Positions 1 to 6,467 of a stretch of DNA of 23,749 nt are shown one piece after another. How positions within the stretch are numbered: the stretch's first letter is position 1; every line of letters begins with the position of its first letter. Below the pieces are notes generated by a model. It did no database searches, had not been told where the DNA came from, and saw nothing but the letters and a program-made list of their open reading frames with translations. Position numbers and translations under genes: made by a program. Origin of the DNA: Nautiliaceae bacterium (GTDB lineage: Bacteria; Campylobacterota; Campylobacteria; Campylobacterales; Nautiliaceae); contig JBDONT010000019.1 in NCBI GenBank assembly GCA_039831155.1, forward strand, positions 1 through 23,749. Direction: 5' to 3'.

Positions 1-71
1 AGAGTGATATTTGCAATGAAAAACTTGACGAGTTAAAAGAGAAAATTACTCAGTTGGTGTTTTTAGAATAA
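1..71 (+). CDS. 3' end of an unidentified gene entering from the left (partial)
   Basis: The frame starting at nt 3 reads SDICNEKLDELKEKITQLVFLE* with TAA at 69-71. It has coding-like composition, but the family is not recognisable. Confidence 0.5.
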   Translation, partial: SDICNEKLDELKEKITQLVFLE

Positions 72-100
72 AAGTAGCAAGAAAAGAAGCTGCTATCTTT
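71..100. terminator. Possible weak hairpin between convergent genes
   Basis: aaag-tagca (71-79) pairs with tgcta-t-cttt (91-100) and overlaps the stop of the small minus-strand gene. Confidence 0.3.
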
Positions 101-233
101 TTGAAGAGTTTTTAGCAGCTGCTCTTTGAGCTCTTGTGGCAAAGCTTCCTTTTGGAACTCTTCCTCCGTTTGCTTTTGCTGTTGCACTTTGAATTCTTGA
201 AGCCGCTTTTGATGTCATAGGTATTTTTGCCAT
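93..233 (-). CDS. 46-aa basic, Ala-rich small protein with an SMP (seed maturation protein/LEA)-like motif; not in the ORF track
   Basis: Manual translation gives MAKIPMTSKAASRIQSATAKANGGRVPKGSFATRAQRAAAKNSSKR*. AGGAGG RBS (239-244) lies 5 nt before the ATG, and TATAAT lies at 265-270 on the minus strand. The pattern MT.xAASRIQSA...GG.V.KGS.A.RAQ.AA.KN resembles the SMP repeat (PF04927-like, recognised by eye). Confidence 0.88.
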   Translation of the reverse strand: MAKIPMTSKAASRIQSATAKANGGRVPKGSFATRAQRAAAKNSSKR

Positions 234-264
234 TTTTTCCTCCTTTTTGTTTTTTGGGCAAGAA

Positions 265-270
265 ATTATA
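265..270 (-). promoter_or_regulatory. -10 box (TATAAT) for the small SMP-like gene
   Basis: attata on + reads TATAAT on -, about 30 nt upstream of the ATG at 233. Confidence 0.55.
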
Positions 271-301
271 AGAGCTTTTTTAATTTTAATATAGGAATTT
301 T

Positions 302-348
302 AAAGGACAAGAAAGTTAAAAATAATTTTACTCGCTTTCTTGTCTTTT
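302..348. promoter_or_regulatory. Inverted repeat, operator-like, in the divergent intergenic region
   Basis: Perfect 10-bp arms GACAAGAAAG (306-315) and CTTTCTTGTC (335-344) with a 19-nt spacer. The stem extends outward (aaa/ttt) and has an inner taaaa/tttta stem. An extra CAAGAAA half-site lies at 259-265. Confidence 0.6.
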
Positions 349-406
349 TCTTTTCCTATTTATATTTTATGATAATGGTTAAAATTCCGATAAAAAAGGA
401 GTCAAA

Positions 407-2251
407 ATGAAATGTGCTAAATGGATAAGTAATGAAGAAATTTTAGGAATTGTAGTAAAAATTTTGGATATCGAACCAGATAATAAAAGAATAGTTAATA
501 AAGATTTAGAAAGGTTTTTTAAATTTGAAAATATTTCCATATCAAAATATAAAGAAATTGAAGAGTATTTATTAAAAGAGATTTCTTCAAAATTAAAAAT
601 AGGATATATTGATTTAATTCATCTTTTAAATGTTTTAAATCAGATAAAAATTCATAATCCAACTCTTAATGTATCAAGAAAACAACTTGATTTTATTTTG
701 CTTTTTGATGTGATTATTCCATTTTTTATTTCGAAGGCTGATTATAAATTTTTAGAGATTTTGAAAAAATATATTAATAGCAAATCGCCTTTTGAAAAAT
801 TTTTAGATGATTATTTAGAGCTAAAAAAGAAATTAATAGAAGAAAAAGGAATTGATACTACTTATAAAAATTTAAAAAATTGGATAAATGGAAAAAATAT
901 CTCAAAATCCTCAGTTAATGAGATTTTAGAGTTAATTGATGAAGATAAGAAAGAGGAGTTTTTAATATCTTTGTGGGTTATGAGAGTAATAAATAATTTA
1001 AGAAATTATTTTGGAGAAAAGATATCAAAATTCATATTTTCTCATATTAATCTGCTAATAGATTTTGATTTTGCTATGAAAGATGAGAGGGATGGTTATA
1101 AAGCTATTTTAGAAAAGCTTAATTTAAAAAATTCTTGGATGTTAAGAGAGTATTTTTATAGATATATTGAAAGAAATGATTATGTTTTTGTAGGGTTTGA
1201 TGACTCGCGTGTAGATGAATTTTATGTTAATGAAATATTGATAAGAATAAAAGAGCTTTATAATTACAAAAGTATGGTAATTTTAGATGAAAATCAGTTT
1301 TTTTCTTTGATAGATGATTTCTTTTTTGTTGATTATATTAGATTAAATTTGGAAAAGCCTTTTAGTGAAGTTGATAAAAAAATTAAAGAAGTTTCAAAGT
1401 ATACAAAAATAGATAACGATATGATAATTTTGGATGAAATTTCAAGGTTAGGTAAAGAGGAGTTTATAAGTGAATTTTCAAAATTATATGAAAGTTTAGA
1501 AGATAAAAGTTATCCTTTGGCTCAATTTTTTATGGGAATTTATCTTGTTAAAAGAGGAAAGTTAAAAGAGGCATTAGAAAAATTTAAATTGGCTTTAAAT
1601 GGAGTTAATTGTATAGGTAGTAATATTTTAAAAGTAATTGAATTTGGATTAATGGTAAGTGCAAAACTTAACAATAAAAAACTCACAATAAATTTTAAAA
1701 ATAATAAGTCTGATTTTATTAAATTTTATTTTGAAGGGTATAGGTTAGGTGTTTTGGTTTATCCAAAAGATTTTAAACCTATTTTAAATGATTATAAATT
1801 GGAGTTTGAAAGAAGATATGGAAAATTAAAAACTTTAAAAGCAGGAAATAAAAATGTTTATTTTGGTTTGGTAGATGAAATTCAAAAAATAAAGCCTGAT
1901 TTAAAAAAACCTAATAAAAAAATAAAATTGCCTTATAAAAATTATAAAATTCATCAGCTTTTGCATTTTGCGGGAGAAGGGAGTTTTGAAGATGTAAAAA
2001 GATTGGTTGAAGCTGGGGCTGATGTTAATTGTGCGGATGAAGTAAGTAATTATACGGCTTTAATTGCCGCTCTTGAAAATCCACTTGATGAAGAGAGAAG
2101 AAAAATAGCTTTTTATTTAATAGATAAAATGGATAAAGATATAATAAAAAAAGAGTTGATTAAGAAGAAAAAAAGTGCTTTGGATTATGCTAAGGAATGG
2201 GGAGAAAGTGAAATAGTGGAAAAAATAAAAGAAAGACTTTCTAAGATTTAA
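407..2251 (+). CDS. 614-aa protein with C-terminal ankyrin repeats, a TPR-like helix pair and a possible Xre-type HTH segment
   Basis: Ankyrin motifs are QLLHFAGEGSFEDVKRLVEAGADVN, YTALIAALEN and KSALDYAKEWGESEIVEKI. The TPR-like segment is PLAQFFMGIYLVKRGKLKEALEKFKLAL and the HTH-like segment is TTYKNLKNWINGKNISKSSVNEI. An aaggag RBS precedes the ATG. Confidence 0.8.
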   Translation: MKCAKWISNEEILGIVVKILDIEPDNKRIVNKDLERFFKFENISISKYKEIEEYLLKEISSKLKIGYIDLIHLLNVLNQIKIHNPTLNVSRKQLDFILLFDVIIPFFISKADYKFLEILKKYINSKSPFEKFLDDYLELKKKLIEEKGIDTTYKNLKNWINGKNISKSSVNEILELIDEDKKEEFLISLWVMRVINNLRNYFGEKISKFIFSHINLLIDFDFAMKDERDGYKAILEKLNLKNSWMLREYFYRYIERNDYVFVGFDDSRVDEFYVNEILIRIKELYNYKSMVILDENQFFSLIDDFFFVDYIRLNLEKPFSEVDKKIKEVSKYTKIDNDMIILDEISRLGKEEFISEFSKLYESLEDKSYPLAQFFMGIYLVKRGKLKEALEKFKLALNGVNCIGSNILKVIEFGLMVSAKLNNKKLTINFKNNKSDFIKFYFEGYRLGVLVYPKDFKPILNDYKLEFERRYGKLKTLKAGNKNVYFGLVDEIQKIKPDLKKPNKKIKLPYKNYKIHQLLHFAGEGSFEDVKRLVEAGADVNCADEVSNYTALIAALENPLDEERRKIAFYLIDKMDKDIIKKELIKKKKSALDYAKEWGESEIVEKIKERLSKI

Positions 2252-2253
2252 TT

Positions 2254-2487
2254 ATGAAACTTACTAACATTACCGGAAGAGAACTTATGAAGATTTTAAA
2301 AAAGCTTGGGTTTTATTTTGATAGGCAAAATAGAGGAAATCACAGGATTTTTAAAAACCCTAAAGGAGAAATTGTCGTTATTCCTGCTTATAAGAAAAAA
2401 ATATTAAAGCCCGGGCTTTTAAAGGGAATTTTAAATCAGTTAAATATCAATAAGGATGAGTTTATGAAACTTAGGGATATGGTATAA
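2254..2487 (+). CDS. hicA: HicA (YcfA)-family type II toxin / mRNA interferase, with no adjacent hicB
   Basis: RELMKILKKLGF..RQNRGNHRIFKNPKGEIVVIP...LKPGLLKGILNQ matches the HicA consensus, including the catalytic G-x-H His. 77 aa, basic. Confidence 0.85.
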   Translation: MKLTNITGRELMKILKKLGFYFDRQNRGNHRIFKNPKGEIVVIPAYKKKILKPGLLKGILNQLNINKDEFMKLRDMV

Positions 2488-2488
2488 T
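2480..2488 (+). promoter_or_regulatory. Extended -10 promoter (TGGTATAAT) for hypE, overlapping the hicA stop
   Basis: Exact TGnTATAAT about 30 nt upstream of the hypE ATG. Confidence 0.6.
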
Positions 2489-2519
2489 TAAATAAAAGTG
2501 TTTTAGATAAAGGAATAAA

Positions 2520-3497
2520 ATGAAAATAACTTTAGCGTATGGTGGTGGAGGAGAAGAGACAAACAAGTTAATAAACGATTTGTTTTATAAATATTTTAAT
2601 AATGATATTTTAGTAAGTGCGGAAGATGCTGCGGTTATCGGCACAGATGGAAAAATTGCTTTTACTACCGATAGTTTTACGGTAAGTCCTTTGTTTTTTA
2701 ACGGAGGGGATATTGGAAAGCTTAGTATTGCTGGGACTTGTAATGATATTGCTATGATGGGAGGTAAGCCTGAATATTTAACTTGTGGGTTTATGATAGA
2801 AGAGGGGCTTGAATTTAATGAGCTTGAAAGAATAGTAAAGTCAATGGCTGATGAGCTTAAAAAAGTCGGGGCAAAAATTGTTGCCGGAGATACGAAAGTA
2901 GTTCCGGCCGGAAGTGTAGATAAGATTTTTATAAATACTTCCGGAATTGGAAAAATTGTAAAAGAAGGAATTAGTGCCCATAATTTAAAACCTGGCGATA
3001 AGATAATAGTTAGTCGTGATATTGGAAGACACGGAACTGTTATAATGGCTCACAGATACGGGGTTGATACAGATTTAAAGAGTGACTGTAAAGTTTTATG
3101 GGATGAGGTAAAAGCCCTTATTGATACGGGAATTGATATAAAAGCTATGCGTGATGCGACAAGAGGAGGGGTTAGTGCCGTTTTGAATGAATGGAGTAAG
3201 GCCAGTGGAGTAGGAATTGAAATTGAAGAAGAAAAGCTTCCTATTAGTGATGAAGTTATAGGGCTTTGTGAGATATTCGGGTTTGAGCCTATGGATTTGG
3301 CAAATGAAGGTACGTTTGTAGTTGCAGTTGATGCACAAGATGCTAAAAAAGCAGAGCAGGTATTAAAACAGTTTAACGATAAAGCTTCAATTATCGGGGA
3401 AGTAGTGGAGGGAAATAAAGTTGTCTTAACGTCTCCTTGGGGTTCTAAAAGATATATTGAACTACCAAAAGGAGAATTGTTGCCTAGAATTTGTTAA
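2520..3497 (+). CDS. hypE: Hydrogenase maturation carbamoyl dehydratase HypE
   Basis: N-terminal ITLAYGGGG, FTTDSFTVSPLFFNGGDIGKL, GDTKVV, MRDATRGG, ANEG and the diagnostic C-terminal PRIC. Confidence 0.97.
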   Translation: MKITLAYGGGGEETNKLINDLFYKYFNNDILVSAEDAAVIGTDGKIAFTTDSFTVSPLFFNGGDIGKLSIAGTCNDIAMMGGKPEYLTCGFMIEEGLEFNELERIVKSMADELKKVGAKIVAGDTKVVPAGSVDKIFINTSGIGKIVKEGISAHNLKPGDKIIVSRDIGRHGTVIMAHRYGVDTDLKSDCKVLWDEVKALIDTGIDIKAMRDATRGGVSAVLNEWSKASGVGIEIEEEKLPISDEVIGLCEIFGFEPMDLANEGTFVVAVDAQDAKKAEQVLKQFNDKASIIGEVVEGNKVVLTSPWGSKRYIELPKGELLPRIC

Positions 3498-3511: not shown

Positions 3512-3541
3512 AGTATATGAATAATCATTTAGGAGTTGTGT

Positions 3542-4246
3542 GTGAGTAAACAGGAAGAAATTGTTAGTATGTTTGATTCTATTGCAAAGAGGTATGACTT
3601 TGTAAATAGAGTATTGACGTTCGGTATAGATAAAAGATGGAGAGAAAAGGCCATAAAAGATACTTTAGAACTTATCGACAAAAGAGAAGTTAAAATCTTA
3701 GATGTAGCGTGTGGAACGGGGGATATGATTGAGATTTGGCAAAACGAATCCAAAAAGAAAAATATAAAAGCGACTATTTGTGGATTAGACCCGAGTGTAG
3801 GAATGCTAGAGGTTGCTAAAAACAGATTTCCGGGGATTAAGTTTTATCACGCGTATGCAACTGAAATTCCTTGTAATAGTGAAAGTATTGACGGTATTAG
3901 TATTTCATTTGGTATTAGAAACGTAATAGAAATAAAAAAAGCGATAAAAGAGTTTTATAGAACGTTAAAAAACGGAGGAATTGTGCTTGTTTTGGAATTT
4001 GTAAAAGCAGATACCCCTAATAAGTTTAGAAAATGTGTGGATTTTTATTCTAATAAAGTTTTACCTAAAATTGGTGGAATTCTTAGCAAGAATAAAAAAG
4101 CGTATGAGTATCTTCCAAACTCTATAGAGAATTTTTATACTCCTAATGAACTTAGGCTTCTTTTTGAGAAAGAAGGATTTAAAACCCTTAAAATAGATAG
4201 TTTTAATTTCGGTCAGGTTGGGGTTTTTATATTTAAAAAGTCTTAA
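3542..4246 (+). CDS. ubiE: Demethylmenaquinone C-methyltransferase (UbiE/MenG family)
   Basis: MFDSIAKRYDFVNRVLTFGIDKRWR, SAM motif LDVACGTGD, ISFGIRNV, AYEYLPNSI. The start is more likely GTG at 3542 (AGGAG at 3531-3535) than TTG at 3536. Confidence 0.93.
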   Translation: MSKQEEIVSMFDSIAKRYDFVNRVLTFGIDKRWREKAIKDTLELIDKREVKILDVACGTGDMIEIWQNESKKKNIKATICGLDPSVGMLEVAKNRFPGIKFYHAYATEIPCNSESIDGISISFGIRNVIEIKKAIKEFYRTLKNGGIVLVLEFVKADTPNKFRKCVDFYSNKVLPKIGGILSKNKKAYEYLPNSIENFYTPNELRLLFEKEGFKTLKIDSFNFGQVGVFIFKKS

Positions 4247-4451: not shown

Positions 4452-6425
4452 TTATAATGTAATCTCTTTTATATCTGCAATGTCAAGGAATTCTTTATAA
4501 ATTGAAGCTATTAGGCTTTTTCTGTTGTGTTTTATTTTTTCATCTTCCACATTTACCATTACATTATCGAAAAATCTATCGATAAGAGGTTTTAGAGATA
4601 CTAAAAAGTCAAGTTTTTCTTCAAGGTCATTAATTTCTTTTACTTTTTTAAACTCTTCCCATAACGCTTTTTCTTCATCTTTTTCAAATAATTTTTCGTC
4701 TACTTTAATCGAATTTAAATCGAAGTCTTTAACAATATTGGCAACTCTTTTGAAGGTGGTTGAGAGTTCTTTGAAGTCTTCTGAATTTACCATTTCGTTA
4801 ATTAGTTTTACTTTTTTGTCAATTTCTACTAAATTACTCTCACCCGTAGCAAGCACGCTTCTGATAACCGAAGGATTTACGTTATAGAATTTGTAAAGTC
4901 TTTCAAAAATAAACTCTATTAGCTGATTTGTGTCAAATTCTTTATAGTTTGATTTTAGTTCGTTTATAATTTCTTTTATTTCCAAAGGTATATTGTTTTC
5001 GTTTGTTATTTTGATTATGTAGTTTGCAGCACGTCTAAGTCCAAACGGGTCTTTGTTTCCTTTTGGAATTTTACCTATGCTAAACAGAGCCATTAGGGTA
5101 TCAAGGTTTCTTGCAATGTTTAAAAGGGCAGAGGTTTTATTTGTAGCAGTGTCGGAGTATTGTTCTTTAATAGCAGTTGCGATTTCTTCTTCAACTCCTT
5201 CTTTTTTTGCGTAATAATACCCCATAATTCCTTGAAGCTCGGTAAACTCATATACCATTTCTGTTAAAAGGTCTGCTTTTGCTAGATTTACGGCTTTTAG
5301 AAGTTTTTCTTTATCTGCTTTGAATTTATCTGCCAGAATTTGTGCTATTTTTTCTTCTCTTTTTACTTTATCGTATACGCTTCCAAGCCCGTCCATATAA
5401 ACGATATTTTTTAAACCTTCTATGCTAAGACCTCTTTTAAGGTCGTTTTCCCAGAAGAATAAAGCGTCACTTAGTCTGGCCCTTAGTACTTTTTCGTTAC
5501 CTGCTATAATTTTTGAAAAATCGTTTGTATAAGCGTTGCTTACTACTATAAAAGCGTTTGTAAGTTTATCGTCTTTATAAACCGGAAAATATCTTTGGTG
5601 TTCTTTCATAGATGTAATGATAACTTCCGGAGGAAGAACCAAAAACTCTTCGTCAAACTTTCCAGGAAGGGCTGTAGGGTATTCGGTAATTGCTACGATT
5701 TCAGCAAGTAAATCTTCGTCTATTTCAACTTTTATGTTTTCTTTTTCTTCAAGTGCCTTTATTTCTCTTAAGATTTTGGCTTTTCTTTCATCTTGATAGA
5801 GAATAACTCCGTGTTTGTCAAGTTTGCAGAAATATTCCCCTACGAATTCTATTTTTATATCTTCTTTGAAAATTCTATGAGGTTTTGTGATATTGGAGGA
5901 TTTCACACAATAAGAGTTAAACTCTATAACTTCGTCTTCCAGCATACATAATATCCATCTAACCGGTCTTATAAATTCAGCTTCACACTCTCCCCATTTC
6001 ATTGTTTTTCCGAAATTTAAAGAGTTTAGCCATTCGTTTATCATTTGAGGTAGAAGTTCTTTAGCTTCTTTTCCTTTTACTTTTTTTTGGAAATATAAAA
6101 ACTCTTTGTTGCCTTTTGTTTTAAATAAAACGTTTTGAGGTTCAATTCCACACTTTTTAGCAAAACTCTCAAGGGCTTTTGGGTTTTTTTGAGCTATTTC
6201 TTTTGGAGCTCCCCATATCTCTTCTACTTTGTCTTCTTGTTTGATAGGAAATTCTCTATGCCAAAGAGTTAAACGTCTAGGTGTGTAATAAAAACTGAAA
6301 TTTGTTTTTAAATCATATTTTTCCAAAATATCCAGCCATTTTTTTTCGATGTTCGGTAATTCTTTTAAAAGAGGGATAGCCGGTAACTCTTCAACTCCTA
6401 TTTCTATGAGTAGTGGTTTTAACAT
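4452..6425 (-). CDS. glyS: Glycyl-tRNA synthetase beta subunit
   Basis: LLIEIGVEELP, TPRRL, FIRPVRW, HQRYFPV, GNEKVLRARLSDA, EFTELQGIMG, DPFGLRRAA, FFDNVMV. The real start is probably ATG 6425 (or 6428) after an aagga RBS. The listed TTG at 6455 overlaps the -10 box. Confidence 0.97.
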   Translation of the reverse strand: MLKPLLIEIGVEELPAIPLLKELPNIEKKWLDILEKYDLKTNFSFYYTPRRLTLWHREFPIKQEDKVEEIWGAPKEIAQKNPKALESFAKKCGIEPQNVLFKTKGNKEFLYFQKKVKGKEAKELLPQMINEWLNSLNFGKTMKWGECEAEFIRPVRWILCMLEDEVIEFNSYCVKSSNITKPHRIFKEDIKIEFVGEYFCKLDKHGVILYQDERKAKILREIKALEEKENIKVEIDEDLLAEIVAITEYPTALPGKFDEEFLVLPPEVIITSMKEHQRYFPVYKDDKLTNAFIVVSNAYTNDFSKIIAGNEKVLRARLSDALFFWENDLKRGLSIEGLKNIVYMDGLGSVYDKVKREEKIAQILADKFKADKEKLLKAVNLAKADLLTEMVYEFTELQGIMGYYYAKKEGVEEEIATAIKEQYSDTATNKTSALLNIARNLDTLMALFSIGKIPKGNKDPFGLRRAANYIIKITNENNIPLEIKEIINELKSNYKEFDTNQLIEFIFERLYKFYNVNPSVIRSVLATGESNLVEIDKKVKLINEMVNSEDFKELSTTFKRVANIVKDFDLNSIKVDEKLFEKDEEKALWEEFKKVKEINDLEEKLDFLVSLKPLIDRFFDNVMVNVEDEKIKHNRKSLIASIYKEFLDIADIKEITL

Positions 6426-6445
6426 CATTTTCCTTTTTTTATGTA

Positions 6446-6467
6446 ATTTTATCAAATTTGGTATTAT
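6446..6467. promoter_or_regulatory. Back-to-back extended -10 boxes for glyS (-) and the FtsZ-C gene (+)
   Basis: TGATAAAAT on - (6446-6454) and TGGTATTAT on + (6459-6467). Confidence 0.5.

Follow-up and report, generated by a model that had tools for sequence, protein, structure and literature searches.

A hicA gene without hicB behind a gene for a putative helix-turn-helix/TPR-like/ankyrin protein: a candidate defence-type pair in the hypD-hypE gap of a Nautiliaceae bacterium

HicA without HicB behind a larger upstream gene

Fourteen genomic contexts of HicA have been distinguished (Gerdes, 2024; PMC10865869) and in class 10, as set out in the main text of that survey, hicA is situated downstream of a gene for a prokaryotic viperin (pVip). 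How HicA RNases that lack HicB and adjoin viperins are regulated, and what they add to defence, are questions raised in the same text. The locus described here lies at the start of a stretch of 23,749 nucleotides from a Nautiliaceae bacterium (GenBank assembly GCA_039831155.1, contig JBDONT010000019.1), which is called the window throughout and corresponds to contig C13 of this genome from its first base. As in pVip-hicA, a hicA gene lacking hicB immediately follows a larger defence-type gene, with which it is apparently co-transcribed, and its product is 88% identical to the HicA encoded directly after a pVip gene at the same chromosomal site in a relative (genome G011). In contrast to pVip-hicA, the upstream gene of the window encodes a 614-aa protein with helix-turn-helix (HTH)-like, tetratricopeptide repeat (TPR)-like and ankyrin parts and not a radical-SAM viperin. 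Thus, a HicB-less hicA behind a defence gene is known already, and new here is the HTH/TPR-like/ankyrin protein as upstream partner; the locus is best read as a new context of HicA without HicB, which is an allelic counterpart of pVip-hicA and probably serves defence. The words ankyrin and TPR do not occur in the main text of PMC10865869, and a literature search returned nothing relevant on an orphan HicA with ankyrin repeats or on a prokaryotic viperin with ankyrin repeats.

With the canonical HicAB/HicBA toxin-antitoxin (TA) modules the locus shares a HicA domain (68 bits) with the conserved histidine of the G-x-H motif as well as a compact arrangement of two genes, whereas it differs from them in that its own genome lacks any HicB domain (PF15919 and PF05534 searched). 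Our reading is that of a mosaic island at a hotspot, in which the 614-aa gene and hicA form an operon and act as a defence-type pair, while a small gene and an MNT/HepT remnant are passengers, and we give this reading an even chance of being right. The original prediction, made from the letters of the DNA alone, had instead united the small gene, the 614-aa gene and hicA in one three-part module. Its placement of the three open reading frames (ORFs) is borne out (93-233 on the minus strand, 407-2251 and 2254-2487 on the plus strand), together with the AGGAGG ribosome-binding site of the small gene and the 2-nt junction between the other two. The features of the locus are as follows.

3..71, plus strand: tail (3' end) of what is left of a HepT (DUF86) toxin gene, 25 codons in all, with a translation that matches the C-termini of HepT from G011 and G007
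93..233, minus strand: small gene for 46 aa of the SMP-motif family (SMP profile, 23.6 bits)
306..344, between the divergent genes: inverted repeat with 10-bp arms and a 19-nt spacer, candidate operator of the 614-aa gene cassette
407..2251, plus strand: 614-aa gene, HTH-like, TPR-like and ankyrin parts taken from an AlphaFold2 model
773..979, about aa 123-191 of the 614-aa protein: Xre-like HTH in the N-terminal helical region, a weak structural sub-match
2254..2487, plus strand: hicA for 77 aa (PF07927, 68.1 bits), without HicB
2476..2497, plus strand: 22-nt element with the extended -10 box TGGTATAAT (2480-2488), overlapping the hicA stop codon
2520..3497, plus strand: hypE, conserved right flank of the hotspot (TIGR02124, 436 bits, cut-off 251.6)

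The 77-aa protein matches HicA_toxin (PF07927) over profile positions 1-58 of 58, at 68.1 bits for a cut-off of 27. G-x-H is the motif of the conserved catalytic histidine in HicA, and in all six aligned HicA homologues it is invariant as G28-N29-H30; tyrosine takes the place of the second histidine, that of the usual P-x-H motif (P-A/V-Y). Judged by its family, the protein would be an RNase effector. It is the only HicA of its genome, which is 96.7% complete, and neither HicB profile (PF15919, PF05534) finds a match anywhere in that genome at E ≤ 0.1, so that the claim of a HicA without HicB stands genome-wide. The neighbours of hicA are the 614-aa gene and hypE, with no adjacent gene for HicB, and PF15919 likewise detects no HicB in the relatives G011, G023, G015 or G005. 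hicA (dN/dS 0.10-0.16), the 614-aa gene (0.29) and the small gene (0.14-0.34) are all under purifying selection. For hicA, the low ratio and the invariant G-N-H mark a live gene.

That the large gene and hicA go together was also part of the original prediction, and hicA does directly follow the large gene in each of the five loci in which the junction is visible (the window, L032, L033, G023, and L031), although the contig of G023 holds no more of the large gene than its final 23 codons. According to the ORF list, hicA of the window starts 2 nt past the stop codon of the 614-aa gene. In L031, labelled as a metagenome-assembled genome (MAG) of the Nautiliaceae, both the large protein and HicA are about 55% identical to those of the window, the two reading frames overlap by 14 nt, and the flanks differ, the downstream genes not being hypE. 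Such 2-nt or overlapping junctions suggest co-translation. Complex prediction for the 614-aa protein with HicA gave a score of 0.00 and hence no answer, which speaks neither for nor against binding. Vent metatranscriptome contigs hold pieces of the 614-aa gene and of hicA; none of them bridges a gene junction under a 31-nt rule, and carry-over of DNA is possible, so that they are not counted as evidence for expression or for an operon.

The 614-aa protein, its family and the weighing of the pair

The label of an HTH/TPR/ankyrin protein is weak by sequence, since the Pfam matches are below threshold (Ank_2 with 25.1 bits for a cut-off of 27.3, TPR_2 with E 0.11), but it is backed by the fold. 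The Pfam scan of the protein finds no HTH family and no radical-SAM match. The Ank_2 cut-off is passed by the homologues L031 (29.7 bits) and P0011 (51.3 bits). In the AlphaFold2 model, which is all-helical (pLDDT 83.5, pTM 0.71), residues 495-614 (nt 1889-2248) form three ankyrin repeats (Z 13-14, root-mean-square deviation ~2 Å, ~100 residues aligned), and TPR-like hairpins occupy residues ~350-471 (nt 1454-1819). For the HTH the structural support is weaker. Residues ~114-195 are the only ones aligned in 27 of the 50 structural matches listed, one of which extends to residue 240, and most of the 27 are HTH domains of the Xre/cI type (Z 3.2-4.2, deviation mostly 2.7-3.8 Å and above 5 Å in two cases). 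This sub-match fits a conserved motif around W159, a residue that is invariant in the family alignment.

Residues 1-350 folded alone give a confident model (pLDDT 84.3, pTM 0.86) and match no solved fold; Foldseek against the PDB returned nothing at E ≤ 0.001, either for the whole model or for residues 1-350. The best VIA-align Z for residues 1-350, 4.6 with terpene synthases, is within helical noise, and this part is left without an assigned fold. An Atlas search with residues 1-480 led to unnamed clusters at 0.93-0.94, and to leads for TPR, Sel1 and HTH_3 below 0.9.

The close family of the 614-aa protein consists of 10 clusters, itself included. An exhaustive HMMER search collects 309 proteins at E ≤ 0.001, most of them through the ankyrin repeats only, and about 15 are distant homologues over the full length, with 800-860 aa, 25-35% identity and extra ankyrin repeats. 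The few distant homologues with a named source belong to Campylobacterota and Elusimicrobiota; Sulfurimonas gotlandica is one source, a MAG of Elusimicrobiota another. In a class-wide sample of 401 genomes the ankyrin family occurs in five, the own genome counted, and pVip in six. Two of the six pVip genes, L060 (G099) and L061 (G291), contain an in-frame TAA stop and are thus likely pseudogenes. In G079 and G239 a distant homologue of the 614-aa protein and pVip are encoded as divergent neighbours; these two loci are syntenic and are therefore taken as a single event. The homologues of G315 and G359 are encoded near a gene for RmuC on one side and the gene for the β-subunit of glycyl-tRNA synthetase on the other, without pVip.

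The proposed mechanism is as follows. HicA, a member of a HicB-less clade of RNases placed behind varying upstream genes, would be the RNA-cleaving effector, and the 614-aa repeat protein would autoregulate the operon by binding the inverted repeat through its HTH. The TPR/ankyrin surface of the same protein might sense a protein or ligand cue, and together with HicA it would form a pair of the abortive-infection or defence type.

Several observations weigh against such a pair. First, the hyp-linked copies all come from close relatives, and the five linked loci therefore amount to about two independent observations. Second, hicA persists in G011 at 88-91% identity in a locus without the 614-aa gene. 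There, the gene upstream of hicA codes for pVip (NF038283, 290 bits for a cut-off of 180; PADLOC pVip, 274 bits); in the own genome, no match to NF038283 reaches the cut-off. Third, related HicB-less HicAs are encoded behind a 377-aa ORFan in G167, behind a 391-aa ORFan in G298 and alone in G197. Fourth, hicA is absent from the loci of 10-15 kb that contain the distant homologues in G079, G239, G315, and G359. In addition, the HTH match of the 614-aa protein is weak (Z 3.2-4.2), collections of phages, plasmids and viral contigs contain no match for its N-terminal 510 aa, and the HMMs of PADLOC-DB v2 give no system match for the small protein, HicA or the 614-aa protein, the sole PADLOC match of the latter being PDC-M72A (E 0.0013, 16 bits) in the ankyrin part. 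The claim that no named system has this layout is only partly right, since the main text of PMC10865869 already describes hicA without hicB downstream of a different defence gene.

Comparison of L033 with G011 delimits the exchange. The two loci are 96% identical through hypC-hypD-MNT; past MNT they are completely different, with the small gene and a 623-aa gene in L033 versus a 254-aa gene and pVip in G011, and homology restarts exactly at the ATG of hicA, with 91% identity. The HicAs from G167, G298, and G197 (L048, L049, L050) share the G-N-H and P-A/V-Y-K-K-K motifs. The ORFans of G167 and G298 are AT-rich, unrelated and without Pfam match, and hhalign detects no similarity between the 614-aa protein and the 391-aa protein of G298. 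In G167, a 128-aa ORF overlaps the hicA junction and shows a weak match to the PBECR3 nuclease (E 0.0036). For more distant HicAs, in G028, G003, G107, and G332, a small HicB-like gene is seen upstream by eye.

These data bear on two alternatives. Three unrelated genes might simply have gathered at a hotspot, with hicA as a resident stand-alone orphan beside hypE and the 614-aa protein as an unrelated regulator or scaffold that has no functional link to HicA. Such a coincidence would account for the exchange boundary exactly at the hicA ATG, for a HicA clade that occurs behind unrelated genes or alone, and for distant ankyrin homologues without hicA, and TA genes are known to cluster in islands of this kind (main text of PMC10865869). 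It does not fit well, however, with L031, where the pair is retained at ~55% identity, with overlapping frames and other flanks, away from hypE, nor with junctions that suggest co-translation, nor with the association of the ankyrin family with pVip in another lineage, and we regard it as a rather unlikely explanation that has nevertheless to be taken seriously.

Alternatively, the locus might be a non-canonical type II TA module in which the 614-aa protein itself neutralises HicA as an antitoxin in place of HicB. The gene order is that of hicBA modules, with an upstream partner that overlaps or abuts hicA, the own genome has no HicB, and classes 7 and 8 in the main text of PMC10865869 comprise large forms of HicB. 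G011, however, keeps hicA with pVip, in the absence of both the 614-aa gene and HicB, which indicates that the 614-aa protein is not needed for hicA to be tolerated; also, a related hicA stands alone in G197, and neither Pfam nor the fold reveals a HicB-like domain in the 614-aa protein. An antitoxin function of this protein thus seems improbable to us.

For the defence-type pair of the 614-aa protein and HicA, linkage in two contexts is the supporting evidence, weakened by the independence of hicA in G011 and G197. Three links, i.e., of the ankyrin family with hicA, of pVip with hicA and of the ankyrin family with pVip, suggest that the ankyrin family acts in defence and that the HicA clade serves as a plug-in effector. 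A further-reaching version is conceivable, in which the HicB-less HicAs with G-N-H and P-A/V-Y-K-K-K motifs would be a plug-in RNase effector shared by exchangeable defence proteins encoded upstream, and the 614-aa family an unrecognised anti-phage sensor that is able to take the place of a viperin at the same locus and adjoins one in other lineages, and we put it forward tentatively, with the odds against it.

The inverted repeat and the small gene

A palindromic site between the divergent genes had been proposed, and it is present as a perfect 10-bp inverted repeat, GACAAGAAAG at 306-315 and CTTTCTTGTC at 335-344, which was read from the sequence; an automated repeat search did not list it. 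Among 2000 shuffles a perfect repeat as long or longer appeared in 58, and one with at least four G/C per arm in none. In L032 and L033 the repeat is preserved via two compensatory changes. Both arms contain TTGTC, a potential -35 element, and the left arm is used by a promoter-like site on the minus strand, TTGTCC-16-TAAAAT. Promoter-like sites are no commoner than in shuffles (15 versus 14.0), and no terminator-like site was found. The repeat is a candidate operator.

The small gene is preceded by AGGAGG six bases before its ATG and encodes a protein that is basic and hydrophilic throughout, with no hydrophobic export signal in its 46 aa. Its match to SMP (PF04927; 23.6 bits for a cut-off of 22, residues 5-43) is marginal and thus indicates a motif in common, not a function in common. 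The family comprises 68 homologous clusters with 67-100% identity in best local alignments, the query's own protein counted, from sources that include Pseudomonadota and Bacteroidota (Actinobacillus, Nitrosospira, Cupriavidus, Neptunomonas, Lacinutrix). Between distant phyla the best local alignments show 67-91% identity, an unusual degree of conservation for such a short protein.

In the original prediction this small protein was the partner of the large one, bound or controlled by it. A three-part switch of this type would resemble the RRNPP systems (PlcR/PapR, ComR, AimR/AimP), in that the TPR/ankyrin protein would sense the small protein and gate HicA. Like those regulators, the 614-aa protein seems to combine an Xre-like HTH with TPR-like helices that follow it, and a small gene as well as a palindrome in the promoter region adjoin; PlcR/ComR-type regulators are indeed present among its weak HTH matches. 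Furthermore, the small gene is located upstream of the large gene and divergent from it in all three loci in which that side is visible (the window, L032, and L033, the latter two being 81-85% identical relatives), the shared inverted repeat is conserved, and 3033 bp is the longest contig listed for a small homologue as well as for a large homologue of 74% identity, which is a mere hint of a shared contig. In contrast to RRNPP regulators, the HTH of the 614-aa protein is internal (~aa 123-191) and not N-terminal, ankyrin repeats are added, the structural matches to RRNPP members are limited to the HTH (Z 3.5-3.8), and the neighbouring small protein is hydrophilic, without export signal and of a widespread, independent family.

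The distribution of the small gene also argues against this switch. It is present in three of 40 relatives (G005, G015, and G038), namely after hypD at a contig end in G005, divergent from a 257-aa gene in G015, and beside an integrase gene in G038, where the small protein is 55% identical; G015 and G038 lack the 614-aa gene. BLASTP reveals no similarity of the 614-aa protein to the 257-aa protein of G015 or the 254-aa protein of G011. In G038 (L007 1492-1781) the small gene is followed by an ORF for 46 strongly acidic aa. DNA homology between the window and G015 spans 3-271 and ends before the inverted repeat, and no small-gene match is found near the distant 614-aa homologues in four genomes (loci of 10-15 kb). 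With 68 clusters over several phyla, as opposed to the 10 clusters of the close 614-aa family and its few full-length distant homologues, the small gene lacks a specific tie to the 614-aa gene and is an independent passenger outside the functional module. Co-occurrence of the three genes in other genomes had been named beforehand as the criterion for a single module, and outside a few close relatives they do not co-occur; both the small gene and hicA are missing from the surroundings of the distant homologues in four genomes, and in G011 hicA follows viperin. The three-part switch therefore has to be given up as a likely explanation, and we would assign it only a very small probability.

The hypD-hypE gap as a cargo hotspot

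Among 16 genomes of the same family with hypD and hypE, both of them genes of hydrogenase maturation, on one locus, 11 have the two genes only 6-187 bp apart; because of this spacing the block before hypE is to be considered acquired cargo. In the remaining five, gaps of 561-3149 bp contain AT-rich cargo that is unrelated from genome to genome, and the gap thus acts as a cargo hotspot in this family. The cargo consists of the following genes.

G007: MNT-HepT
G002: MNT and a HepT fragment
G016: a 62-aa gene and a PIN-like gene (by eye)
G011: MNT-HepT, a reverse 254-aa gene, a radical-SAM gene (pVip), and hicA
G015: a 235-aa and a 315-aa gene, the small gene (reverse), and a 257-aa gene

The 315-aa protein of G015 (L006 1922-2869, minus strand), the gene of which adjoins the 235-aa ORF, has a weak PADLOC match to JukB (21.5 bits, E 3.3e-5), which makes it a possible further candidate for defence at this hotspot. 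In G002 (L024), an insertion of ~560 bp between hypC and hypD holds a 64-aa ORF, indicating that the neighbouring junction is able to take cargo too.

Acquisition as a cassette, as initially supposed, holds in so far as the block is acquired, but it is a mosaic and not one cassette. All three genes are AT-rich, and the large gene is indeed more so than its flank, with G+C contents of 0.205-0.233 across all 400-base windows of 401-2000, rising to 0.28-0.30 in its final ~250 bases, compared with 0.37-0.39 within hypE. Window positions 1-2519 are the right-hand part of a ~2.8-kb island between hypD and hypE, in the order hypD, MNT, HepT remnant, small gene (reverse), inverted repeat, 614-aa gene, hicA, hypE. 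The left-hand part is on contig C40 of the same genome, whose terminal part carries hypC, hypD and the gene for the MNT nucleotidyltransferase; since the final ~127 nt of C40 recur without a difference as window 1-127, C40 and C13 abut and the start of the window is not a true boundary. MNT is intact on C40, and what follows is a HepT remnant of only 25 codons, with no intact HepT beside it. Different from the intact module in G011 and G007 (HepT of G011 against Pfam HepT-like, 57.4 bits), the own genome therefore retains an MNT antitoxin left without its toxin. Rfam yields no match at E ≤ 1 on window 1-3000.

Like defence islands and TA clusters, the site holds variable AT-rich genes (MNT-HepT, a PIN-like pair, pVip) at one fixed position between conserved genes, but unlike integration hotspots and defence islands no integrase or transposase is seen in the hypD-hypE gap. 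As a boundary mark, only a repeated element of ~19-22 nt is visible, which carries an extended -10 box. The element with TGGTATAAT is present right after hypD and at the 3' end of hicA, before hypE. In G015 an identical 22-mer follows the hypD stop codon (L028 4102-4123), and the copy after the hypD stop codon on C40 is near-identical, with one indel; with up to three mismatches allowed, the 22-mer of 2476-2497 is unique in the genome, the copy after hypD differing by more. The element is likely both a hypE promoter and the island boundary. With a copy on either side of the island, in the manner of a direct repeat, it may represent a promoter that was duplicated or a site of recombination.

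Past hypE, a methyltransferase-like gene (by eye; window 3536-4246, plus strand) occupies a position conserved in G011, G023, and L033. A long gene on the minus strand (4452-6455) resembles, by eye from the ORF list, that for the β-subunit of glycyl-tRNA synthetase.

For vent Campylobacterota, the gap between hypD and hypE thus represents a compact cargo hotspot. With the same hicA behind viperin or behind an ankyrin-repeat protein, one chromosomal site provides a natural allelic pair, so that the question of how HicA is restrained becomes testable by swapping the upstream partners. The three-way association with pVip and HicA flags the HTH/TPR/ankyrin family as a defence candidate, and if HicA should indeed be a plug-in effector shared between such partners, the locus would bring the number of HicA contexts to fifteen and introduce a new defence family based on ankyrin repeats.

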